Below, piece by piece: positions 7,158 through 61,763 of a stretch of 64,000 nt of DNA. The notes beneath the pieces are model-generated. The model was not told the DNA's origin. It was given only the letters and a program-made list of their open reading frames with translations, and made no database searches. The stretch comes from an uncultured Alphaproteobacteria bacterium (GTDB lineage Bacteria > Pseudomonadota > Alphaproteobacteria > CAAHEQ01 > UBA3637), in NCBI GenBank assembly GCA_934234055.1, contig CAKQGY010000003.1, positions 21,142-85,141 of the forward strand, in the 5' to 3' direction. The translations under genes were made by a program, and so were the position numbers. The stretch's first letter is position 1. Each line of letters begins with the position of its first letter.

Positions 7158-8041
7158 AATAAAGTTTCGGGATCTATGCGGACACCATACCAGCTGAGCA
7201 CAAAATGCAGGTGTGGACCGGTGGAACGGCCGGTCGTGCCAATTCGGCCGATTGGGTCTCCTTGTTTAACCTGTTGATCTAACTTAACATTTATGTGACT
7301 GAGGTGCGAATAGGATGAAAAAACACCGGCACCGTGATCCAGCAAAATCGTCTGGCCAGTGTAAAATAAATCAGGATGCACAAAGGCAACGCGGCCGGCC
7401 GCCGGTGCCAGCACAAGAGTGCCCGTGGGGGCGGCATAGTCAGTTCCGCTATGTCCTTGTTTTTTAACATTATTCAGAATGCGGCGCGACCCGAAATGAC
7501 TGGAAATACGCTTGAAATCCGGGACGGGACGTTGAAATTTTGTCGGAAAAGCAGGGTAGTCAGAACGGGCGCGGGCGGCACGAATCTGTGCGGATTCGGT
7601 GGCGACTCGTTTCCGGTTTTCGGACGACAGGGACACGGTGGCCGACGGCAGGCCGGAGACATACTCTTCGTCCCAGGCGCGCGATTGAACCGGAAAATCC
7701 CGGGTTTTGGCACCGGTTGAGGTCTTAATCGTCAAGGATAATTTTGGAGCGTCCTGAGGGATGCCGATGACAAAACGACGGTCCTTTGTCGAGGGGATTT
7801 GAAATAAATTTTTACTTGTTTTTCCGTTGTTTAAATAAGAACTTTCAACAAAGACTTCTTCCCCGGGATCCAAGCGACCATAGGCCAGAGAACCCTCGGT
7901 CAACGGGGAGTCAAATGTTAAAGCAATACTTGAAGTGGAAAAAAACAAGAAAGATGTAATTACAATGTAATTATTTAGTGATTTTGTAATTATTTTGTAA
8001 TTACATTTTAATGAAGTATATACATTGTAATTACTTTTCAT
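7154..8041 (-). CDS. M23 family (LytM-type) peptidase
   Basis: HSGTDYAAP...GPHLHF M23 motifs. The N-terminal 30 codons are made of an AT-rich repeat array, so the true start is uncertain. Confidence 0.75.
   Translation of the reverse strand: MKSNYNVYTSLKCNYKIITKSLNNYIVITSFLFFSTSSIALTFDSPLTEGSLAYGRLDPGEEVFVESSYLNNGKTSKNLFQIPSTKDRRFVIGIPQDAPKLSLTIKTSTGAKTRDFPVQSRAWDEEYVSGLPSATVSLSSENRKRVATESAQIRAARARSDYPAFPTKFQRPVPDFKRISSHFGSRRILNNVKKQGHSGTDYAAPTGTLVLAPAAGRVAFVHPDLFYTGQTILLDHGAGVFSSYSHLSHINVKLDQQVKQGDPIGRIGTTGRSTGPHLHFVLSWYGVRIDPETLF
7943..8022. repeat. Array of five copies of the palindromic motif TGTAATTA(CA) in a pure-AT island
   Basis: Copies at 7943, 7954, 7973, 7984 and 8014. TGTAATTACA is self-complementary. 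Lies at the xseA stop / M23 start junction. Confidence 0.6.
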
Positions 8042-11251: not shown

Positions 11252-12412
11252 CTATTCACTGATCGTATCAAAATACGCGTTGACGGCTCGAACCAGAGCT
11301 TCGGCCAGGTCGCGTCGATAAGAGGCTTTTTGCAGATTTTTATCCTCGGTGCGGTTGGATAAATACCCAAGTTCCACCAAAACAGAAGGAATGTTGGGCG
11401 ACTTTAACACCACAAAACCGGCCATACGATGAGCGTTCGGAACCAGAGGGACTTTGCGCTTCATCTCGCGCACGACCAAATCGGCGTATTGGGCGGACTT
11501 GTTCATCGTGTCGGTCTTGGCCAAATCCAGCAAAATGTTGCCGGCGTCGGCGTCAACCTCGGATAAATCCATACCGAGAATGATGTCAGCTTTGTTTTCG
11601 CGCTCGGCCAAAGCGGCGGCCTCGGCATCGGAGGCGCGCTCGGAAATCGTGTAGACCGACAGACCCCGAGCCGAGGGATTTTTGGCACTGTCGGCATGAA
11701 TGGATATGAATAAATCCGCATGGGCGGCGTGCGCTTTTTTAATCCGACTGCGCAGAGGAATAAATACATCAGAATCACGCGTCAGGACAACTTTGTAGCC
11801 GGCTTTTTTAAGCAGGTCGCGAGTCTCGCGCGCCATGTTGAGCGTGATGTTTTTCTCGTAATGGCCGGAACGCGAAATCGCACCGGGATCCTGACCGCCG
11901 TGGCCGGCATCCAACACAATGACACGCTGGGTCTTTTTAGGAGTTGTAAAGGGACGCAAACCGCCAGATCCTGTTTTGGTTTCAGAAGAAGAAACAGGTA
12001 AAACGGTCGGAGCATTTCTGGATAAATCTAATACAAAACGCCAACTTTTGCCACTTTGCGGTTTGAGCAGAAAATGCTTTTCGGTCAGAGCCTCGTTTGG
12101 CAGATCCAAAACGATCCGCGCGGTGCCGGCAAACGGTGTGCCCGTGCGCAAACCTCCGACAAAATTGACGGGACTGAACTTTTGAGCCTTGGCCAAGGGG
12201 GAAAAAGTAGTGTTCTTGAAATCCAGAACCAGGCGCGGCGGGTTAGATAAGCGCGAAACAAGCACCTGAGCTTCGGCCGATAAATCTGCTACAAAGCGCA
12301 CCGCGTCGGCCGTGGAAGACGCCAGACGCATACCCTTGATTTCCTGAGCCAGAGCCGTCGTGCCGATTAAAAAACACAGCAAAAAAGCAACCAAAAAAGA
12401 AATATACTTCAT
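11252..12412 (-). CDS. amiC: N-acetylmuramoyl-L-alanine amidase (AmiC-like, with N-terminal AMIN domain)
   Basis: Signal peptide and Amidase_3 motifs (VIVLDAGHGGQDPGA, HADS). Confidence 0.85.
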   Translation of the reverse strand: MKYISFLVAFLLCFLIGTTALAQEIKGMRLASSTADAVRFVADLSAEAQVLVSRLSNPPRLVLDFKNTTFSPLAKAQKFSPVNFVGGLRTGTPFAGTARIVLDLPNEALTEKHFLLKPQSGKSWRFVLDLSRNAPTVLPVSSSETKTGSGGLRPFTTPKKTQRVIVLDAGHGGQDPGAISRSGHYEKNITLNMARETRDLLKKAGYKVVLTRDSDVFIPLRSRIKKAHAAHADLFISIHADSAKNPSARGLSVYTISERASDAEAAALAERENKADIILGMDLSEVDADAGNILLDLAKTDTMNKSAQYADLVVREMKRKVPLVPNAHRMAGFVVLKSPNIPSVLVELGYLSNRTEDKNLQKASYRRDLAEALVRAVNAYFDTISE

Positions 12413-12439
12413 TTATTTTGTCCGATTCGTAAAAAAAAC

Positions 12440-12468
12440 TTGCTTATTTATTCATATAACGATATAAT
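12440..12468 (+). promoter_or_regulatory. Predicted sigma70 promoter of rne (TTGCTT-N17-TATAAT) followed by a ~170-nt leader
   Basis: Hexamers with 17-bp spacing. A long 5' UTR is expected for autoregulated rne. Confidence 0.45.
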
Positions 12469-12645
12469 ACAAAATGCAATCAAAAAACGATTGCCCAGAA
12501 AAATTTTTAAAACCGGAGACAAGAAAATGAACTTGATGACATGTTTGACAGACCTGAAGGGGCGCTTGATTCCGGCTTTATATGACGGCGATTTGAGGGA
12601 AAATTCGGCCGAACCTGATAACTTGAAATTAAAGGATTTTTATAT

Positions 12646-14817
12646 ATGTCAAAACAAATGCTTATTGATGCGACGCACGCCGAAGAAACGCGCGTGGTCG
12701 TGCTGGACGAGGGGAGATTAGACGAGTTTGATGTTGATACCTCTACCAAAAAACAAATCAAAGGAAATATCTATTTAGCCAAAGTGGTGCGCGTGGAACC
12801 GTCGCTGCAAGCCGCGTTCGTGGAATACGGCGGCAATCGGCACGGATTCTTGGCCTTTGGGGAAATTCACCCGGACTATTACCAAATCCCGGTGGCCGAT
12901 CGCGAAGCCATTAAAGAACAAATGAAAGCCGAAGCCGCAGCCGAAAAAGCGGCGCGTGATTCGGAAGAAGAAACCGAAACCGAAGATCAGGAAGTGGAAA
13001 CTGTCAGTGATGCCGAAGCCGATGATATGATTCGGCACCGCTCGTCATTCTATCGGAAATACAAAATCCAGGAGGTTATTCGCCAGGGGCAGGTGATGCT
13101 GGTCCAAGTGGTCAAAGAAGAACGCGGCAATAAAGGCGCGGCACTGACGACCTATTTATCCTTGGCCGGCAGATACAGCGTTTTAATGCCGAACAACGGA
13201 AAAGGCGGCGGTGTTTCGCGTAAAATCAATAATGTGAAAGAACGCAAAAGCCTGCGTGAAATTGTGGAAAAACTGCCGATCCCGGAGGGTATGAGCGTGA
13301 TTATCCGCACCGCCGGACAGGGTAAAACCAAAGCCGAAATTAAACGGGACTTTGATTACCTGATTAAAACCTGGATGCAGATTCGTAAGGAAACACTGGC
13401 CTCTATTGCGCCGAAACTGATCCACGAAGAAGGCGATATTATTAAACGCTCGCTGCGGGATGTCTTTACGCCCGATATTGACGAAATTATCGTGGAAGGT
13501 GAAGATGTCTTTAAGACGACAAAGGCATTTATGAAAATCCTGATGCCGGCGCAGGTCAAGAAAATTAAACAATACAAAGGGGAACTGCCCTTGTTCCAAC
13601 AATATATGGTGGAAGCACAGCTGGAAGCTATTCACAGTAATATCGTGCAATTGCGTTCGGGCGGGTATCTGGTGATTGATCAGACAGAAGCCTTGGTTGC
13701 GGTGGATGTGAACTCGGGCCGGGCAACGCGCGAACATAATATTGAAGAAACCGCGCTGCGGACGAACCTGGAAACCTGTGATGAATTGGCGCGGCAGTTG
13801 CGACTGCGGGATATGGCGGGCCTGATTGTGATCGACTTTATTGATATGGACGAACAACGCAATAACGCCGCGGTGGAACGACGCTTGAAAGAGGCTTTGA
13901 AACGCGATCGGGCGCGGATCCAGGTTGGGAAAATCTCGGGCTTTGGGCTGATGGAAATGTCGCGGCAACGGTTGCATTCCAGCTTTTTGGAAAGCAGTTA
14001 TCATATTTGTCCGCATTGCGGCGGAAAGGGCTTGGTGCGCTCAACGGAATCGTGTGCGATGCATGCGCTGCACATCTTGGAAGAAGTGGCCGCCAAAAAT
14101 AAAGGCGCTACCTTGGTGATGAGCTTGCCCTTGGAAGTTGCGGGATATGTGCTGAATATGAAACGCGAAACGCTGGGCGACTTGGAAAAACGATTCGGAA
14201 TTAAAGTTCAAATCTTGGCTGACACAACATTGGTGAAAGCGTCGGACTTTAAGATGGAACGAATCCGCGAAAACGGCGACCGCTGTGCGGTGTCGGTGCA
14301 ACCGAACATGCCGCGCAGATCCGATCGGAACAACTCGAAAATGCAATCTATTGACGCAATTGTGCAGGCCTCTATCGCCGAAGAAGAAGCGGAAGAAGAA
14401 GCCGGCGGGCGACGCGGGCGGCGGCGTAAACATCGGCGGCGCGATTGGAACCGTAAACAAAAACAGCTGGCAGAGGGACAGGCAGAGATGAATGATGCCC
14501 GAGAGGCTGAGACGGGGGTGGCCGACGTCCGAGAGACGGCTGAAAAAAGTGAAGAAAATTTTACGGTGGTGGAGCAAACATCGCTGCAAAATGAAGACAA
14601 ACCCGCCGGGAAAAAAGGAAAATATCGCGATCGCGGGCGGCGGCGTCGGGGACAAAAATCGACGGATAAGGCTTTGGTCCCGGCGCAGGTGTCGGCTCCG
14701 GCAGTGCGGGAAGAAAATGTGCCCGTCAAGGCCGAAATGCACCCGGTTCCGGTGGCGACAGATGAAGCCCCTAAATCAGCCAAAAAAGGCGGTTGGTGGA
14801 ATCGCTTGATGGGGTAA
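12646..14817 (+). CDS. rne: Ribonuclease E
   Basis: S1 domain, DNase I-like catalytic domain, Zn-link CPHCGG, then an Arg/Glu-rich C-terminal scaffold. Confidence 0.9.
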   Translation: MSKQMLIDATHAEETRVVVLDEGRLDEFDVDTSTKKQIKGNIYLAKVVRVEPSLQAAFVEYGGNRHGFLAFGEIHPDYYQIPVADREAIKEQMKAEAAAEKAARDSEEETETEDQEVETVSDAEADDMIRHRSSFYRKYKIQEVIRQGQVMLVQVVKEERGNKGAALTTYLSLAGRYSVLMPNNGKGGGVSRKINNVKERKSLREIVEKLPIPEGMSVIIRTAGQGKTKAEIKRDFDYLIKTWMQIRKETLASIAPKLIHEEGDIIKRSLRDVFTPDIDEIIVEGEDVFKTTKAFMKILMPAQVKKIKQYKGELPLFQQYMVEAQLEAIHSNIVQLRSGGYLVIDQTEALVAVDVNSGRATREHNIEETALRTNLETCDELARQLRLRDMAGLIVIDFIDMDEQRNNAAVERRLKEALKRDRARIQVGKISGFGLMEMSRQRLHSSFLESSYHICPHCGGKGLVRSTESCAMHALHILEEVAAKNKGATLVMSLPLEVAGYVLNMKRETLGDLEKRFGIKVQILADTTLVKASDFKMERIRENGDRCAVSVQPNMPRRSDRNNSKMQSIDAIVQASIAEEEAEEEAGGRRGRRRKHRRRDWNRKQKQLAEGQAEMNDAREAETGVADVRETAEKSEENFTVVEQTSLQNEDKPAGKKGKYRDRGRRRRGQKSTDKALVPAQVSAPAVREENVPVKAEMHPVPVATDEAPKSAKKGGWWNRLMG

Positions 14818-14833
14818 GACCCGGAAAAAATGG

Positions 14834-14868
14834 AAGCACCCCTTGGGAAACCGGGGGTGCTTTTTTGT
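14834..14868 (+). terminator. Rho-independent terminator of rne
   Basis: AGCACCCC...GGGGTGCT stem followed by TTTTTTGTG. Confidence 0.7.
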
Positions 14869-14869
14869 G

Positions 14870-14898
14870 TTGACAGGGGGATTCTTTTGGGCTAAAAT
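14870..14898 (+). promoter_or_regulatory. Near-consensus sigma70 promoter (TTGACA-N17-TAAAAT) driving the pilin-like gene leader
   Basis: Exact -35, 17-bp spacer, TAAAAT -10. Would give a ~190-nt 5' UTR that contains the conserved block and the CA tract. Confidence 0.5.
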
Positions 14899-14962
14899 GA
14901 GGGCTATGATAAAGCAAAAATGTAGTCAGATTGGGGTCAATTTTAAGGGGTGCGAATCGCGT

Positions 14963-15012
<50 letters not shown>

Positions 15013-15096
15013 GTTCTGGTGAGAAGAAAAATTTAAGCAGTCGGTTGCCGGGTGGCGACCGGCTGTATCTGTCTATAACCGAAAAGGAGAAATAAG

Positions 15097-17010
15097 ATGA
15101 ATACAAAGAAATCATATTTAGTGGATTGCCACGCCCCACAAGGGGGGCCCGCAATGACGGCGGGGAGCGAATCTGGTCGCACTTTGACCGAGATGCTGGG
15201 TGTGTTGGCGATTATGGGTGTGTTGACCATTGGCGGGATAGCCGGGTTTAACTGGGCGATGGACCGGTGGCGAGCGAATCGGATTATTGACGGGGTGGAA
15301 GAGCGAGCCTTGGTCGGGAGCCGGTTGCGCCTGTCCGGTATGAATAGGACAATGGAAATAGCAGATGCAGTGGTGGCTCAAACCGGGGGAACGATAGAGG
15401 ACTATGCCACGACGGTGAGTAATACGGGCTATAACGATGAGAAGACTTATTTTTCGGTGCAGGTAGCCGGAGTATCGCCGCAGGTGTGTGAGAATGTGAT
15501 GAACCTGAACTGGCAGTTGCCGGTGGAAGTGTATGCGGGGAATACCCAATATACGGGTGATACGGCGATTTGTGCCGGAGAGGGGACAGTGGATTTGACT
15601 TTTGTGTTTGCGGCGGATTTGATTACGAAGAAAGATGTGAAGGTGGTGGATCGGAACAATCCGACCTGTCAGCCGACACAGGTTTGGACCTGTAAGACGA
15701 ATGACGCCAACGGCTATAAATGCTGCACGGCGGGTATGTTGTGCAAGGCGGAGGAGGATACACTGCCGACAGGAGTGTTTTCAGAGAACAAGGGGAACTG
15801 TCCGCGCGGGACGCATCAGTGCCGGAATAATCAGTGCGTATGTCGCAAAAGTTGCCCGGCCGGCTATGAACAAGATCCAAAAACATGCGCATGCAGTTCT
15901 CAAACATGTGAAACCGGTGTTTGGAACGAAGCCAAAGGCGAATGCGTAGAATGTAATGAAGATACGGACTGTGCCACTCGCACCGACGGCAAGACAACCT
16001 GCGATACAGCGAGTAATGTGTGCAAGTGTCCGGCAGGTAAGGTTCCGAATGCCGACGGGACGGCTTGTGTGGAATGTAAAACAAACGCGGATTGTAAAAA
16101 TGCCTACAAGCCCGTCTGTAATACGGCGAATAACACTTGTGTGGGATGTACCGAAGATGCGGATTGCGCGGGAAATAGAATATGCAACACGGCAAATAAT
16201 ACTTGTAAATGCCCGGCTATGGGCACGAAGCCAACGGCCACTTGCTATACGGCCACGGAGCATGCGGCGACAGAGCAATGCCTGGCCTACACGACATATG
16301 AGCCTCTGATTTGCCCAGAACCTAAAACGGAATGCGATGTTGCCAACAACACTTGCAAGTGCCCGGATTGTCCGGCCGAGAAAATGACGCAAAATGAGGA
16401 TACCTGTGAGTGTATTTGTAATAATAACAAAGTGCTGAATGCAACTGGAACAAGATGTGTGGGGTGTAATACAGATGCTGATTGTGCCTGGCGCACAGAT
16501 GGAAGGACGAGGTGTGGTGTAAATTCCCACACTTGTGCATATGTAACATGTAGAAGCAATTCAGATTGTGCAGCGGGTCAATATTGTTCTATAGGGCCAA
16601 ATGATTGCAAAGATGGCACTTCTGGGGCGTGTAAAGAATTGGGAGAACGGATAGAGTTTGAAAATTATAATTTGCTATATTCTTCTGGTAATAGTGATAT
16701 GAACTGGATGTCGGCTGGGAACTGGTGTCAGGCCAATGGTAAAAAACTCGTTAGTGTAGATACATTGGTCAAAATTGCAGGGAGACCAACTTCTGAGTGG
16801 CACATAGCCGAGTATCAAGATGAACTTCACAGTGCATTTTACAAAGTCTTTGGAAATACAGATTTAGGCTTTTGGACTGACCAAGACTGTATGGGTTGCC
16901 TTGGCAGTCCTACCTGCCGTGCTGCGCTCTTAGGTTCTATTAATGCTACTGATGTTAGTTGGGTGACCTTTAATGATTGGCGTAATAAAATTAGAGCATT
17001 ATGTGAGTAG
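15097..17010 (+). CDS. Modular type IV pilin-like protein: class III signal + pilin head + Cys-rich repeats + C-type-lectin-like C-terminal module
   Basis: AAGGAG SD 8 nt upstream. N-terminus ...SESG|RTLTEMLGVLAIMGVLTIGGIAGFNWAM closely follows the G|FTLIELMIVVAIIGILAAIA pilin motif (Glu at +5). About 60 Cys in CxxC..DxDC..C.C repeats. C-terminus NWMSAGNWCQANGKKLVS...FWTDQDC resembles a CTLD. Confidence 0.6.
   Translation: MNTKKSYLVDCHAPQGGPAMTAGSESGRTLTEMLGVLAIMGVLTIGGIAGFNWAMDRWRANRIIDGVEERALVGSRLRLSGMNRTMEIADAVVAQTGGTIEDYATTVSNTGYNDEKTYFSVQVAGVSPQVCENVMNLNWQLPVEVYAGNTQYTGDTAICAGEGTVDLTFVFAADLITKKDVKVVDRNNPTCQPTQVWTCKTNDANGYKCCTAGMLCKAEEDTLPTGVFSENKGNCPRGTHQCRNNQCVCRKSCPAGYEQDPKTCACSSQTCETGVWNEAKGECVECNEDTDCATRTDGKTTCDTASNVCKCPAGKVPNADGTACVECKTNADCKNAYKPVCNTANNTCVGCTEDADCAGNRICNTANNTCKCPAMGTKPTATCYTATEHAATEQCLAYTTYEPLICPEPKTECDVANNTCKCPDCPAEKMTQNEDTCECICNNNKVLNATGTRCVGCNTDADCAWRTDGRTRCGVNSHTCAYVTCRSNSDCAAGQYCSIGPNDCKDGTSGACKELGERIEFENYNLLYSSGNSDMNWMSAGNWCQANGKKLVSVDTLVKIAGRPTSEWHIAEYQDELHSAFYKVFGNTDLGFWTDQDCMGCLGSPTCRAALLGSINATDVSWVTFNDWRNKIRALCE
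15124..15159 (+). repeat. Stem-loop element GATTGCCACG-(CCCCACAAGGGGGG)-CCCGCAATGACG inside the leader-peptide coding region
   Basis: One of at least four copies with conserved flanks and compensatory stem changes. Contains an in-frame ATG. Confidence 0.7.
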
Positions 17011-17031
17011 CAAAAGGATTATTTGTTTCTA

Positions 17032-17069
17032 GATTGCCACGCGCCCCGTGTGGGGCGCTCGCAATGACG
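17032..17069 (+). repeat. Copy of the GATTGCCACG...CGCAATGAC stem-loop plus a truncated pilin-gene 5' fragment
   Basis: GATTGCCACGCGCCCCGTGTGGGGCGCTCGCAATGACG with a 7-bp GCGCCCC/GGGGCGC stem. Upstream context TATTTGTTTCTAGATTGCC mirrors gene 1's TATTTAGTGGATTGCC. The reading frame stops after MTMRN. Confidence 0.7.
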
Positions 17070-17226
17070 ATGAGGAATTAGGTGATTCTGGATTCTTCGG
17101 GGGACAAGGGCCCAATTCCACCTAAGCCTTGAACGGCGTGCGCGGGGCGGACTTGTTCAAGGCAAAGGTTCATTGCTTTGCGCACTCGGACCGGCCACCG
17201 GCAGGTCCTCGCTTACGCAGTCCTTC

Positions 17227-17237
17227 GCAATGACGGG
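17227..17237 (+). repeat. Partial copy (3' half only, CGCAATGACGG) of the stem-loop element
   Basis: Exact match to the 3' flank. The 5' half is not recognisable. Confidence 0.35.
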
Positions 17238-17315
17238 GAGGAGGGATGGTTAGAGGTAGGTCCGAGGGTGCGCAGTGTAATGACAGGAGAGTGCGACGGT
17301 GGAGCGGAGGGAAGG

Positions 17316-17771
17316 CTATTTGAGGCGTTTGGATTGGAAAAAGGTGGTGAGCAGGGCGCCGCAGAGGTCGGCGTGAATGCCGCCTTGGACCGGAATCTTG
17401 TGGTGCGTTTGCGGGTGGGTGAAAACAGCGGGACCTTGACAGACGGCGCCGGTCTTGGGATCATAGGCTCCGAAATACAGGGCATCCAATCTGGCCCACG
17501 CAATCGCGCCCGCGCACATTGTGCAGGGCTCGGCCGTGACGAATAACGAATAACCCGTCAGCCTTTTCTGTCCCGTCAATTCACAAGCCCGGTGAATCGC
17601 CAGAATCTCGGCATGCGCCAAAGGATCGTGGCGGGCTTCGGTCTCGTTATGCGCCCGGGCAATGATAGCACCGGTGGTGCTGTCAAAAATGATGGCCCCG
17701 ATCGGGACTTCGTCGGCAGCAGCTGCGGATTGTGCCAGTTCGTAAGCGCGATTAAAAATGGTTTCATTCAT
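17316..17771 (-). CDS. tadA: tRNA-specific adenosine deaminase
   Basis: HAEILAI...PCTMCAGAI zinc-binding deaminase motifs. Confidence 0.85.
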   Translation of the reverse strand: MNETIFNRAYELAQSAAAADEVPIGAIIFDSTTGAIIARAHNETEARHDPLAHAEILAIHRACELTGQKRLTGYSLFVTAEPCTMCAGAIAWARLDALYFGAYDPKTGAVCQGPAVFTHPQTHHKIPVQGGIHADLCGALLTTFFQSKRLK

Positions 17772-17815
17772 CTTTTTGCTTTCCTTTTGGTTTGTTTTGT
17801 TATAATATACTATTT

Positions 17816-18529
17816 ATGACAGAAAAGAAAGAGCGAATTGCAAAAATAATGGCAGCGGCGGGGCTGTGCTCACGGCGGGAGGCCGAAAAACGGATTGAAC
17901 AAGGGCGCGTGGTCGTGAACGGCGAGACCCTGAAAACACCGGCGTGCGTGGTGGGCCCGGGGGATACGGTGCTGGTGGACGGAAAACCCCTGGGGCAAAA
18001 GCAGGCGCGGCGGCTGTGGTGCTATCATAAACCCGCGGGCTGTATTACGACAAATCGCGATCCTCAAGGGCGCAAAACAATCTTTGAACAACTGCCGCCC
18101 ACGCTGCCGCGTGTGGTGACGGTGGGACGGTTGGACTTTAACTCGGAGGGGTTGCTGCTGTTGACGACGGACGGGGGATTGGCACGGGAACTGGAACTGC
18201 CGGCGCGGGGGTGGAAACGCAAATACCGCGTGCGCGTGCATGGCAAAATCACAGCGGAAATCGTGGGGCGCCTGAACAAAGGAGTCAAAATTGACGGCGT
18301 GGCCTATGCGCCCTGTCAGATTGAAGTGGAGCGTGAACAGGGGACGAATACTTGGGTGCTGATGACCCTGACGGAAGGGAAAAATCGCGAAATTCGCAAA
18401 ATGATGGCGTTTTTCGGACTGCCGGTGACGCGCTTGATCCGCGTGTCATATGGGCCGTTCCAGCTGGGGAATCTGCCGCCCGGGGAAGTGCGCGAAATAC
18501 CGCCCAAGACTTTGCAGGGGCTGATATGA
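17816..18529 (+). CDS. rRNA pseudouridine synthase (RsuA/RluB family) with N-terminal S4 domain
   Basis: S4 motif RIAKIMAAAGLCSRREAEKRIEQGRVVVNG and catalytic GRLDFNSEGLLLLT. Confidence 0.8.
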   Translation: MTEKKERIAKIMAAAGLCSRREAEKRIEQGRVVVNGETLKTPACVVGPGDTVLVDGKPLGQKQARRLWCYHKPAGCITTNRDPQGRKTIFEQLPPTLPRVVTVGRLDFNSEGLLLLTTDGGLARELELPARGWKRKYRVRVHGKITAEIVGRLNKGVKIDGVAYAPCQIEVEREQGTNTWVLMTLTEGKNREIRKMMAFFGLPVTRLIRVSYGPFQLGNLPPGEVREIPPKTLQGLI

Positions 18530-19077
18530 GAATTATTGCGGGGCGGTGGCGCGGCAAAAAAATAGAAGCTCCGGCGGGGGCGGGCACACGACCCACCAGC
18601 GACCGGGCACGGGAAATGATCTTTAATGTGCTGATGTCCCTGTTCCTGAAAGCCGGCAAACGGTGGGAGAATATGACTTTCGCCGATGTGTTCGCGGGAT
18701 CGGGTGCCGTGGGGATAGAAGCCCTGTCGCGCGGGGCAAAGGAAGTGATATGCCTGGAAAACGGACGGGAAGCGCGGGCGTGCCTGGCGCGTAATATCGA
18801 AGGCTTGGCCGGAATCCGAAATATCGGGGACGCGATGACTGTGCCGGCGCATGATCCGGTTGATGTGCTGTTTATGGATGCGCCGTATGGGCAGGGTCTG
18901 TGGCAACGGGCGGCAGGGGCTTTGACCGCGCAGGGGTGGATCGGTGATGAAACCCTGATAATCGTGGAAATGGATCGGGAGAAACCCGAAAAACTGCCTG
19001 AAAATTGGGAAGAAATACGCGCGTGTGCGGCGGGACGCAACTTGTTCAAACTGGCAAAACGGAAAAGGAGATCCTAA
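18527..19077 (+). CDS. rsmD: 16S rRNA (guanine966-N2)-methyltransferase RsmD
   Basis: MRIIAGRWRGKKI...RPTSDRAREMIFN...DVFAGSGAVGIEALSRGA is typical of RsmD. Confidence 0.8.
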
Positions 19078-53943: not shown

Positions 53944-53986
53944 ACCCTCTTTCGGTTTTGTCTCCCAAAAATTACCCACCCCCGTT

Positions 53987-54023
53987 GTTATTGCGAGCGC
54001 CCCATCCGGGACGCGTGGCAATC
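53987..54023 (-). repeat. Copy of the GATTGCCACG...CGCAATxAC stem-loop element (minus orientation)
   Basis: Reverse complement reads GATTGCCACGCGTCCCGGATGGGGCGCTCGCAATAAC. Confidence 0.6.
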
Positions 54024-54083: not shown

Positions 54084-54147
54084 AGGGGACATGACGATAC
54101 AAAAGTGTAGACATTTTCCGGTTCAAAAAGAGGGGCTTGACATGCCT

Positions 54148-54173
54148 AAAACCCTTATAGTACTACACACACA
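54148..54173 (+). repeat. Conserved leader block AAAACCCTTATAGTACTA followed by (CA)4
   Basis: Identical block to 14963-14980. The CA tract is 20 bp shorter than in the paralog. Confidence 0.9.
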
Positions 54174-54316
54174 TCTAATTGCTGATGAGCAGAAAATTTC
54201 AGTCAGTCGGTCGGTCGCCTGCGGGCAGGGACGACCGGTTGCTGGCGTATACGAACGGTGGACGACCGAAAGGTGGTCTGCCGTTTGAAATTATTCAAAA
54301 CGAAAAGGAGACAACT

Positions 54317-55687
54317 ATGAAAACAAAACACATCAATTCAATATGTCATTCTGAGCGGGCCTTGTGCACTGAAGAATCCATAATCAAGGATTCATTATTA
54401 AATGGATTGCCACGTCCCACAAGTGGGCTCGCAATGACGCCCGGGAACGAATCCGGCCGGTCTCTGGTGGAAATGCTGGGGGTCTTGGCCGTCATGGGTA
54501 TCCTGACGATCGGCGGAATAGCCGGGTTTAATTACGCCATGGATAGATCCAAAGCCAACGATATTTTGGACGGCGTGAACAAGCGCGCAATCGCCTTGTC
54601 GTCTTACCTGATGCTGGGAACGAACATTTCGGCCACGACCCTGGACGCCGAGTTTTCCAACCATATCGGTGATGCGACGGTGGCTTTAAGCCCTGCCGGC
54701 TCGGGGTTCAAAATGACGGTCTCGGGCCTGACGGACTCCGTGTGCGACCAAGTCCTGACCAACGGCCTGAAAATGGCGTCCGAGATTACATTGGGCGAGA
54801 CCAAAATCTGGGACCGGGGCGTCAAGTCCGATCACACCTGCGCCGACAGCGATAACACGATTTCTTTTTCATTTAACGCTGCACTAAACGGCGCTCAGTC
54901 CGCCACCAATGATACCCCCGCGGGGCCCAACGCAGGCACCTGCACCGGGAACGGCGGAACATGGAACGCGGATACAGGTTCGTGCACTTGCCCGGGTCGC
55001 TACACGGGCGTAAATTGTGAAGTCGCCCCGACCGCCTGCCCCGAGGGCGCCACCCCCACCGCCGACGGAAAGTGTCAGATGTGTAAACCAGGAAATGAGG
55101 ATTGTGCTACCTGTGAAGTGACGGAAGAATTTGCTTGTTTTAGTGAGTGTAAGTGTGTAAAACCAGGTAGCGAGTGTACTGATGTATGTTCTCTTGGTTG
55201 GGCAGACACCGTCGCCTGTGTAAATGGAAAATGTGTCTGCGATAATGCAAATGCTGTTTGGGTGACAGAATTTGGGGATGAAGGGCTGACTTTTGGGGAA
55301 TGTGTGATTCCCACCGAAGAACACCAATGCTTTACAAATAAGGATTGCGGGCAGAGTGAATACTGTGATGTTACAATGGAAAGACGCTCTTGCCAAGCAT
55401 TACCGGCTATGACCGAACAAGGCGGGGTTTTGGTCAGCCAAGAGCCCGTGAATTACTATGCGGCTCAAAATATATGCGAGGGTTATGGTAAAAGGCTTCC
55501 GAGTACTTCTACATATGACTTCGGCAAAGCACTTGAAAAATCAAATGGCGAGCCCTTTTGGGTGAAAGGTGGACGAATGGGGGTTTGCCCAGATGCAGAT
55601 GCAAATAATTGTAAGGATGTAGACGAAGAAATGGAAATCTATAATGGCCTTGGAGATGGCAAACATCATACATTGATTTGTATTTAA
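54317..55687 (+). CDS. Modular type IV pilin-like protein paralog: long leader + pilin head + EGF-like/Cys-rich region + lectin-like C-terminal module
   Basis: AAGGAG SD. ...NESG|RSLVEMLGVLAVMGILTIGGIAGFNYAM is near-identical to gene 1. EGF-like CTCPGRYTGVNCE. C-terminus NYYAAQNICEGYGKRLPS...FWVKGG is the shared lectin-like signature. Confidence 0.6.
   Translation: MKTKHINSICHSERALCTEESIIKDSLLNGLPRPTSGLAMTPGNESGRSLVEMLGVLAVMGILTIGGIAGFNYAMDRSKANDILDGVNKRAIALSSYLMLGTNISATTLDAEFSNHIGDATVALSPAGSGFKMTVSGLTDSVCDQVLTNGLKMASEITLGETKIWDRGVKSDHTCADSDNTISFSFNAALNGAQSATNDTPAGPNAGTCTGNGGTWNADTGSCTCPGRYTGVNCEVAPTACPEGATPTADGKCQMCKPGNEDCATCEVTEEFACFSECKCVKPGSECTDVCSLGWADTVACVNGKCVCDNANAVWVTEFGDEGLTFGECVIPTEEHQCFTNKDCGQSEYCDVTMERRSCQALPAMTEQGGVLVSQEPVNYYAAQNICEGYGKRLPSTSTYDFGKALEKSNGEPFWVKGGRMGVCPDADANNCKDVDEEMEIYNGLGDGKHHTLICI
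54405..54439 (+). repeat. Stem-loop element GATTGCCACG-(TCCCACAAGTGGGCT)-CGCAATGACG inside the leader coding region
   Basis: Same flanks as 15124-15159, read in a different codon frame. Inner stem CCCAC/GTGGG. Confidence 0.7.
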
Positions 55688-55689
55688 TT

Positions 55690-55698
55690 CCCCCCCCC
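55690..55698 (+). repeat. C9 homopolymer tract 2 nt after the stop codon of the pilin-like gene
   Basis: TAA-TT-CCCCCCCCC, read directly. Confidence 0.9.
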
Positions 55699-61685: not shown

Positions 61686-61763
61686 GGGGGTGTAGCTCAG
61701 CTGGTTTAGAGCGTCTGCCTGTCACGCAGAAGGTCGAGGGTTCGAGCCCCTTCACTCCCGCCA
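61686..61763 (+). tRNA. tRNA-Asp (anticodon GUC), CCA encoded
   Basis: Cloverleaf folded by hand. Acceptor GGGGGTG/CACTCCC with one G-U pair. Anticodon loop CUGUCAC. T-arm GAGGGTTCGAGCCCCTT. Confidence 0.9.

Follow-up and report, generated by a model that had tools for sequence, protein, structure and literature searches.

The window analysed here, 64,000 nt of contig CAKQGY010000003.1 from an uncultured Alphaproteobacteria bacterium, carries two modular type IV pilin-like genes, gene A (15097-17010, plus strand) and gene B (54317-55687, plus strand), in each of which a constant 5' part in the codon usage of the host is followed, within the same reading frame, by an AT-rich 3' part. Comparison with closely related strains discloses that the 3' modules are exchanged independently of the constant 5' part. 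Less firmly than this exchange, the AT-richness of the tips is ascribed to import from lower-GC relatives.

The gene A product, recognised from the open reading frame (ORF) list, its homologues and fold evidence, comprises 637 residues, and the gene B product 456 residues when counted from the ATG at 54317; this codon follows AAGGAG, as at gene A, and is the probable start within the longer mechanical ORF (54179-55687, plus strand). P0001 is a 97% identical ortholog of the gene A product, and P0035 is 100% identical to that of gene B. Both proteins comprise four parts: (i) a predicted cleavable leader peptide, (ii) a pilin module, (iii) a Cys-rich stalk, presumably disulfide-bonded, and (iv) a tip formed by a Cys knot and a C-type lectin-like domain (CTLD) fold. 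In gene A, these parts are encoded on the plus strand by 15097-15177 (leader, to Gly27 in ESG↓RTLTEM, with an in-frame hairpin repeat, delimited from the sequence and the family-conserved motif GR[ST][ML][VT]EMLG), 15175-15621 (a long N-terminal helix, then a small α/β domain), 15622-16518 (stalk repeats, matched by the TIGR04201 Cys-rich repeat model at 27.3 bits over five stretches) and 16519-17007 (knot and CTLD). In gene B, also on the plus strand, the leader (54317-54457, to the Gly in ESG↓RSLVEM, delimited from the sequence) includes two in-frame repeat elements (D8, D9, I5), the pilin module and constant region (54455-54907) show 43% amino acid identity to gene A, and the AT-rich block (55082-55687) encodes a Cys-rich region and a short CTLD-like tip (YYAAQNICEGYGKRLPS ... 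TLICI).

A sharp synonymous shift inside both genes

The sequence-only reading of the window had placed an abrupt switch from GC-rich to AT-rich codon usage inside both genes, beginning at 16370 and 55075, and these positions fall within ~20 nt of the change points computed from the GC content of third codon positions (GC3). The shift is real: the best GC3 split of gene A lies at codon 431 (~nt 16390), where GC3 drops from 0.58 to 0.32 (z = 6.1), and that of gene B at ~nt 55082, where it drops from 0.73 to 0.34 (z = 8.0), against a maximum absolute z of 3.6 among 31 other genes, namely those long enough for the best-split test among the 41 other ORFs of the window that served as GC3 background. 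The final 600 nt (GC3 of 0.315 in gene A and 0.345 in gene B) fall below the minimum of 0.445 recorded in 803 background windows of 600 nt from the 41 genes (mean 0.612, sd 0.058), bearing out the sliding-window check that had been proposed. Sliding GC3 runs at 0.6-0.8 in the 5' parts and at 0.22-0.46 over the last ~600 nt, with a sharp transition, completed within ~60 nt.

The shift is synonymous, since it persists in a Cochran-Mantel-Haenszel comparison of GC- and AT-ending codons stratified by amino acid (odds ratio 3.4, p = 9e-10 in gene A; 4.5, p = 8e-12 in gene B) and since GC content at first and second codon positions is almost flat across both change points. Relative synonymous codon usage agrees with that of host genes in the 5' parts (r = 0.89), which had indeed been read as following the usage of the genome, and not in the tips (r = -0.08). 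Cys codons move from TGC to TGT, as that reading had it (TGC:TGT from 21:18 to 3:15 in gene A, from 7:3 to 6:14 in gene B), and the enrichment in AAT/AAA codons is evident at Asn, with AAC:AAT of 3:16 in the gene A tip and 0:11 in the gene B tip; the proposed change of Gly from GGC/GGG to GGT/GGA is weak. The tips rely on host-rare codons, AGA/AGG accounting for 57% of Arg codons vs 7% in host genes, and they are poor in TCG, ACG, GCG and CCG.

Taken by segments, the GC3 of gene A is 0.60 at 15175-15954, 0.54 at both 15955-16077 and 16078-16389, 0.33 at 16390-16518 and 0.31 at 16519-17007, so that the AT-rich block is the terminal tip alone and not the whole Cys-rich region; it spans 16390-17010 on the plus strand (GC3 0.31-0.33) and comprises the last Cys repeat, the knot and the CTLD-fold tip. 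In gene B, GC3 is 0.74 at 54455-54907, 0.72 at 54908-55081 and 0.34 at 55082-55684. A third copy of the gene, L090, displays the same late drop. Low GC3 is also seen at the 5' end of an M23-peptidase gene on the minus strand of the window (0.33 in the first 100 codons), where AT-rich tandem units of 8 and 11 nt (TGTAATTAnnn) occupy 7936-8036.

Exchange of the 3' parts and conversion of the constant region

At locus A, the syntenic strain L003 is 96.5% identical to the window over nt 12000-15955 and 96.9% identical from 17112 onwards; between these breakpoints, L003 contains an unrelated 442 nt encoding a β-rich tail and the window its own 1156 nt (15956-17111, plus strand, delimited by L003 synteny and blastn), which include the last 1055 nt of gene A and ~100 nt downstream. 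At locus B, the replaced segment extends over 54908-55698 (plus strand): according to the alignments, L004 and L005 are 95.7% and 94.6% identical to the window up to 54907/54930, and 98.9% and 98.5% identical from 55699/55694, ~10 nt after the stop codon, each bearing a different 3' part in between. The three alternative 3' alleles show GC3 values of 0.39, 0.34 and 0.33, vs 0.61-0.66 in their 5' parts, and in L004 and L005 the GC3 drop begins right at the breakpoint. The same pattern is seen among 131 family proteins, where 236 pairs share N-termini at least 80% identical; the tails are unrelated in 100 of these pairs and at least 80% identical in 11. The earlier proposal that the C-terminal modules had been independently acquired or exchanged holds for exchange, as disclosed by strain replacement at both loci; acquisition from outside by horizontal transfer is a possibility only, and no donor was found. 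Such differences in the tip between strains otherwise 96-99.8% identical would imply a strong diversifying pressure on what is bound, which may be phage, other microbes, or glycans or proteins of the host.

The constant region of gene A (15169-16078, plus strand; blastn and variable-site alignment) is 93-95% identical at the nucleotide level to copies residing at other loci of related genomes (L001 and L002). This sharing ends at 16033/16078 and includes 180 nt, 15259-15438, of 100% identity. Gene conversion is directly visible in this part: contig L086 matches the window at 99.85% identity over 21.9 kb, and in a base-by-base alignment over 12000-19000 all 34 differences fall within 15430-15801 (plus strand), where L086 resembles the L002/L003 alleles and the window resembles L001. 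This patch is a recent gene-conversion tract; the gene A tip is 100% identical in the two contigs. The stalk is in turn a mosaic, gene A residues 287-431 being 55-71% identical to P0008-P0011, proteins that share no more than 38% identity with gene A in the pilin module; at the nucleotide level, 16183-16412 shows 71% identity to the third copy L090, which encodes P0008. One of the P0008-P0011 copies was sampled together with L003 and L004. In practical terms, assemblies break at the constant 5' repeat, and domain annotation would miss the tips.

Origin of the AT-rich tips

Composition was compared across the family in 61 genes with usable flanks from species-representative genomes, 170 neighbouring ORFs serving as controls. 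The GC3 of the first 150 codons follows the host background with a slope of 0.92 (r = 0.73), and that of the last 150 codons with a slope of 0.47 (r = 0.40). In high-GC3 hosts (background 0.55), the first and last 150 codons stand at 0.61 and 0.39, in middle-GC3 hosts (0.42) at 0.45 and 0.37, and in low-GC3 hosts (0.30) at 0.34 and 0.27. The difference between first and last GC3 exceeds 0.2 in 10 of the 61 family genes and in none of the 170 controls, in which it has a mean of -0.007, an sd of 0.061 and a maximum of 0.187. Relative to their hosts, 22 of the 61 tails lie below -0.10 and seven above +0.10, compared with five and three of the controls, respectively. Across the family, the composition of the tails thus follows that of the host only in part, with departures in both directions.

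The favoured explanation, which we regard as somewhat probable, is that the tips are AT-rich because they were imported from relatives of lower GC content within the same clade of gut Alphaproteobacteria, which carry the same family. It is preferred because the decoupling of the tails runs both ways, because lower-GC hosts are common (family hosts span a background GC3 of 0.24 to 0.59, so that lower-GC donors exist) and because the switch is abrupt and involves codon usage as a whole. According to this mechanism, the pilin module would serve to fix the protein in a pilus or pseudopilus. Gene conversion keeps the constant 5' part near-identical among the family copies, and the tip behaves as an allelic cassette, swapped wholesale by homologous recombination that is anchored in the constant part at one end and in the sequence downstream of the gene at the other. 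Its AT-rich codon usage would then mark a history of the tip DNA separate from that of the host genome, the imported DNA being still unadjusted to host composition.

A number of observations weigh against import. No donor was found for either tip, and no relative above ~45% amino acid identity was found outside the own species; the separate search for relatives of the 3' modules, suggested by the sequence-only reading, returned no close relative, and those retrieved all lie within the same family and clade. In JGI metagenome contigs, the search for close relatives of the gene A tip yielded three weak Cys-repeat matches only. When 66 family genes of related loci and the two window genes were compared with one another by blastn, no tip proved to be shared alone: the partial shared segments are all located at 5' ends, and the full-length near-duplicates are L028/L033 (one genome) and L018/L030 (two assemblies). 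Aside from the full-length pair L018/L030, no 3' segments at least 85% identical in nucleotides were found between genomes, and no pair of family proteins combines tails at least 60% identical with N-termini less than 50% identical. In addition, the GC3 boundary lies 435 nt (gene A) and 175 nt (gene B) downstream of the strain-level breakpoints, the stalk repeats in between having host composition in both genes. The match of tip codons to low-GC genomes was set aside as evidence of a donor, as any AT-rich DNA gives it. Finally, the 5' parts show a slight GC3 excess over the host (+0.04 family-wide; 0.725 in gene B vs a window maximum of 0.730), which import does not explain and recombination-linked GC bias would.

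This last point leads to the strongest alternative, possible but on the unlikely side, in which the tips became AT-rich in situ. They would be old divergent alleles under diversifying or balancing selection, unable to recombine, which escape GC-biased gene conversion (or selection) and decay to an AT-rich mutational equilibrium, the converted 5' part gaining GC meanwhile. Both ends of the family genes deviate from the host as this drift predicts, the GC excess of the 5' parts being accompanied by tails at -0.06, most visibly in the high-GC hosts, and the 5' part of gene B reaching the top of the window range; a link of recombination to higher GC3 in bacteria (PMC4450053) fits too, as do the conversion seen in the 5' part, the AT-richness of all alleles at both loci and the lack of a donor. 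One-way decay does not, however, predict the seven tails that exceed their hosts by more than 0.10. Nor does it sit easily with a tip GC3 (0.32-0.34) lower than the intergenic GC of the window (0.45), with an Arg AGA/AGG share above that of every sampled genome (maximum 29%), or with a change accomplished within so few nucleotides.

Selection acting directly on the DNA or mRNA of the tip, whether for rare codons that slow translation during disulfide-rich folding or for binding of an AT-preferring silencer, is improbable. It would account for the use of host-rare codons and for the recurrence of the effect in unrelated tips (CTLD, β-rich tail, Cys-repeat tails), but the equally disulfide-rich stalk keeps host usage, with GC3 of 0.54 in gene A and 0.72 in gene B, and there is nearly no shift in low-GC hosts. 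More improbable still is an assembly artefact joining the conserved 5' part falsely to the 3' part of a lower-GC organism. Such joins are prone to arise at repeats like the 5' part, which extends over at least 900 nt with 93-95% identity, and several family proteins are located on very short contigs; nevertheless, the artefact would need an exact entry and exit of the foreign piece and a return to the syntenic downstream flank, both flanks are collinear in five assemblies, and the independently assembled contig L086 has the identical tip in the same flanks, although another part of its gene departs from that of the window.

Diversity-generating retroelements, whose targets typically end in a C-type-lectin fold (PMC11661182), are brought to mind by the lectin-fold ends and AAT-rich codons of the tips, but a variable repeat rewritten from an adenine-rich template is the least credible reading and is effectively refuted for this window, given that the ~600-nt AT-rich block far exceeds a variable repeat, that alleles differ by wholesale replacement and that the shared tip is 100% identical between two strains, free of adenine-specific differences. 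Within the window, which contains no second copy of any 3' part, retroelement and shufflon models were rejected, and a silent-cassette model found no support. As regards AT-rich variable ends of mosaic genes in general, the locus constitutes a natural test of import vs lack of recombination, because frequently converted and non-recombining parts share one reading frame.

Architecture, family and flanking elements

The designation of both products as pilin-like is upheld by the G↓R(S/T)(L/M)xE motif, the hydrophobic helix that follows and an AlphaFold2 model. The features of a class III signal peptide are found in gene A (...SESG↓RTLTEMLGVLAIMGVLTIGGIAG) and gene B (...NESG↓RSLVEMLGVLAVMGILTIGGIAG), with Gly at -1, Glu at +5 and ~20 hydrophobic residues; G1 and E6 of the prepilin motif are invariant in an alignment of 32 family sequences, and the common N-terminal motif G↓R(S/T)(L/M)xEMLGVLA(I/V)MG(V/I)LTIGGIAG is almost invariant across the family. 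Residue +1 of both predicted mature proteins is Arg. The corresponding profiles score below cut-off, with 11.3 and 13.3 bits vs 21.2 for the Pfam N-terminal methylation model (PF07963) and 10.9 vs 16.3 for TIGR02532; these sub-threshold matches, together with TIGR04201 in gene A, are all that Pfam and NCBIfam scans of both proteins returned. The model of the N-terminal 185 residues (pLDDT 78) shows the pilin fold, a long N-terminal α-helix lying on an antiparallel β-sheet, the nearest folds being type IVb pilins of the CofA/TcpA group.

The model of the gene A tip (last 163 residues; pLDDT 75, pTM 0.77) comprises a small Cys knot followed by a CTLD, and a profile built from 17 tips matches CTLD sequences of the PDB, such as DEC-205 at E = 1.8e-7. 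The gene B tip is a shorter member of this alignment, in which the invariant Cys, Ala and Trp columns are kept. Pfam Lectin_C (PF00059) has no match to the 17 tips at E <= 1, the only hits being weak ones to Xlink, Lcl_C and FGE-sulfatase. The EPN, QPD and WND motifs are absent from the translated tips of both genes; thus, sugar binding is not implied. The earlier description of the 3' end as a lectin module stands for the CTLD fold, established by tip model and profile match, and not for lectin activity. The tip, knot plus CTLD in these two alleles, is probably a ligand binder.

Display of the tip on a pilus would follow from this architecture. Counting against display, no type IV pilus machinery was found within the 64-kb window or beside the family genes inspected, prepilin peptidase, filament assembly ATPase and platform included, so that pilus display stays an inference. 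Likewise, around the clustered family genes of five related loci, sequence reading recognised no pilus genes, domain libraries not having been applied there; the neighbours are housekeeping genes, among which family genes generally sit.

The motif GR[ST][ML][VT]EMLG occurs in at least 593 stretches of one-genome-per-species contigs; among the matches listed, nearly all belong to metagenome-assembled genomes (MAGs) of uncultured gut Alphaproteobacteria (human, ruminant, rabbit), and a genome frequently holds five copies or more. The pilin-like family has no Pfam or NCBIfam model, and a limited literature search, which is no proof of absence, found no description of it; exact look-up of P0006 and P0009 retrieved no contig on record. 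The knot-plus-CTLD profile reaches 1409 representative protein clusters at E <= 0.001, and the module is repeated as many as 20 times in one protein. The giants P0147 (6368 aa), P0148 (4335 aa; annotated from an Alphaproteobacteria MAG) and P0149 (3034 aa) display up to 20 tandem knot-plus-CTLD modules behind a pilin-like GR(S/T)xxE(M/I)L start, and in P0150, P0158 and P0180 the tip module follows an ordinary signal peptide (e.g., MKKILLFVTAILVATSVLAFGGGG) with no pilin module, so that the module is common to two kinds of secreted carrier. The hosts are encountered repeatedly in gut metagenomes of humans, ruminants and rabbits.

Modular pilins are defined by an N-terminal pilin module and at least one extra C-terminal non-pilin module (Raynaud et al. 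2021, PMC8179133), an organisation found here as pilin module, TIGR04201 Cys-rich repeats and CTLD-fold tip. Known members, in which the grafted module is functional in ligand binding, include PilB (vWA) and PilC (concanavalin-A-like lectin) from Streptococcus sanguinis and CofB from ETEC, and modular pilins have been proposed to sit at the pilus tip (PMC8179133, PMC9934059). The proteins described here share with them the class III signal peptide and the C-terminal grafting of a module onto a pilin module, but the graft is a Cys knot and CTLD, unrecognised by Pfam and NCBIfam, on a long Cys-rich stalk, the residue at +1 is Arg, and no assembly machinery is seen. They moreover form a multi-copy family with a homogenised constant part and strain-swapped tips, neither of which is described for modular pilins in that source (PMC8179133).

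Genes A and B resemble Rhs loci (PMC7259588) in the conserved, repeated 5' core that serves as recombination substrate and in the AT-richer, strain-variable 3' extension within one ORF. Unlike Rhs loci, they show no YD repeats, toxin domain or downstream immunity gene according to Pfam and NCBIfam, the genes 3' of the two loci, both on the opposite strand, being a tadA-like deaminase gene (after gene A) and rpsA (after gene B); the predicted function is adhesion, not toxicity; and whereas in E. coli Rhs the core is a GC-rich outlier, here the 5' part is host-like and the tip the outlier. The Neisseria pilE/pilS system, together with simple-repeat contingency loci, offers a further parallel, with pilin genes constant in 5' and variable in 3', gene conversion and a strain-polymorphic repeat at the promoter or 5' untranslated region (UTR). 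In contrast to pilE/pilS, all copies seen are full-length, each having its own upstream box and ribosome-binding site, with no promoterless silent cassettes among them and no partial copies in the window; the conversion observed makes the constant part uniform and does not reshuffle the variable one; and the tips are whole extra domains instead of a hypervariable pilin loop. Among bacterial adhesins and fibres tipped by a CTLD (intimin, invasin and the Bdellovibrio Bd2740 fibre tip), identity is ~14% and the carrier is an outer-membrane β-barrel or trimeric fibre, not a pilin module.

What is new here is the combination of carrier and module within the modular type IV pilin architecture, the constant core with an AT-rich tip being a variant of the known Rhs style. 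A constant front joined to an AT-rich lectin-fold tip that differs completely between near-identical strains suggests a set of interchangeable tips for adhesion. Tentatively, these genes might belong to an undescribed adhesive-variation system of gut Alphaproteobacteria, in which multi-copy, full-length modular pilins would keep conversion-homogenised constant parts, draw on a pool of tips (CTLD and others) circulating across species of differing GC, and be switched by (CA)n at a promoter box; such a system would be functionally analogous to Neisseria pilE/pilS and Opa, yet differently built.

A conserved upstream box (CGTAAAACCCTTATAGTACTA; consensus C(G/C)TAAAACCCTTATAGTACTA) precedes both genes on the plus strand, at 14960-15008 including (CA)14 for gene A and at 54146-54173 including (CA)4 for gene B, the (CA)n tract lying directly 3' of the box (14981-15008 and 54166-54173). 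At locus A, the tract is (CA)14 in the window and L086 and (CA)10 in L003 (5893-5912); at locus B, it is (CA)4 in the window and (CA)15 in L004 (5832-5861) and L005 (5827-5856). As judged from the repeat lengths, this strain-variable tract resembles a simple-repeat contingency tract.

A hairpin repeat, in which the flanks GATTGCCAC...TCGCAATGAC are conserved whereas the GC-rich stem varies, occurs on the plus strand (i) in the leader-coding part of gene A (15124-15158; GATTGCCACG...CGCAATGAC), (ii) 22 nt after the gene A stop codon, within the replaced segment (17032-17068), and (iii) in the leader-coding part of gene B (54405-54438); an inverted copy (I2, 84% complementary) lies upstream of gene B on the minus strand (53980-54023). 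The exact pattern has three matches in the window, with none expected by chance, all beside the two pilin-like genes, and nine copies with differing stems were found in 1.07 Mb of related loci. The two leader-internal copies are in frame and translated as DCHAPQGGPAMT and GLPRPTSGLAMT; many family proteins carry long, dissimilar leaders resembling such inserts. A second short repeat, TGATTCTGGATTCTTCGGGGGACAAGGGCC, lies 3' of gene A (17083-17112), with an inverted copy (I5, 83% complementary) in the leader-coding region of gene B (54357-54386). The spacer 3' of gene A (17011-17315; 305 nt, GC 0.58), the first 100 nt of which form part of the strain-variable segment, is dense in repeat fragments, including GCAATGACG at ~17228, and contains no convincing ORF.

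Rfam has no match to the 5' UTRs and hairpins; the sole Rfam match of the window at gathering threshold is a tRNA gene (61686-61760). The GC skew of the window is unusually strong, ~+0.2 over 40 kb, and reverses near 5.5 kb, in the interval from the gene of an RNase_T-family exonuclease (putative dnaQ-like) to cysS, within a few kb of ORFs whose translations resemble ParA and ParB; from these sequence features, the switch could be a candidate replication origin. A second change in skew occurs near 46-47 kb, where gene orientation flips.

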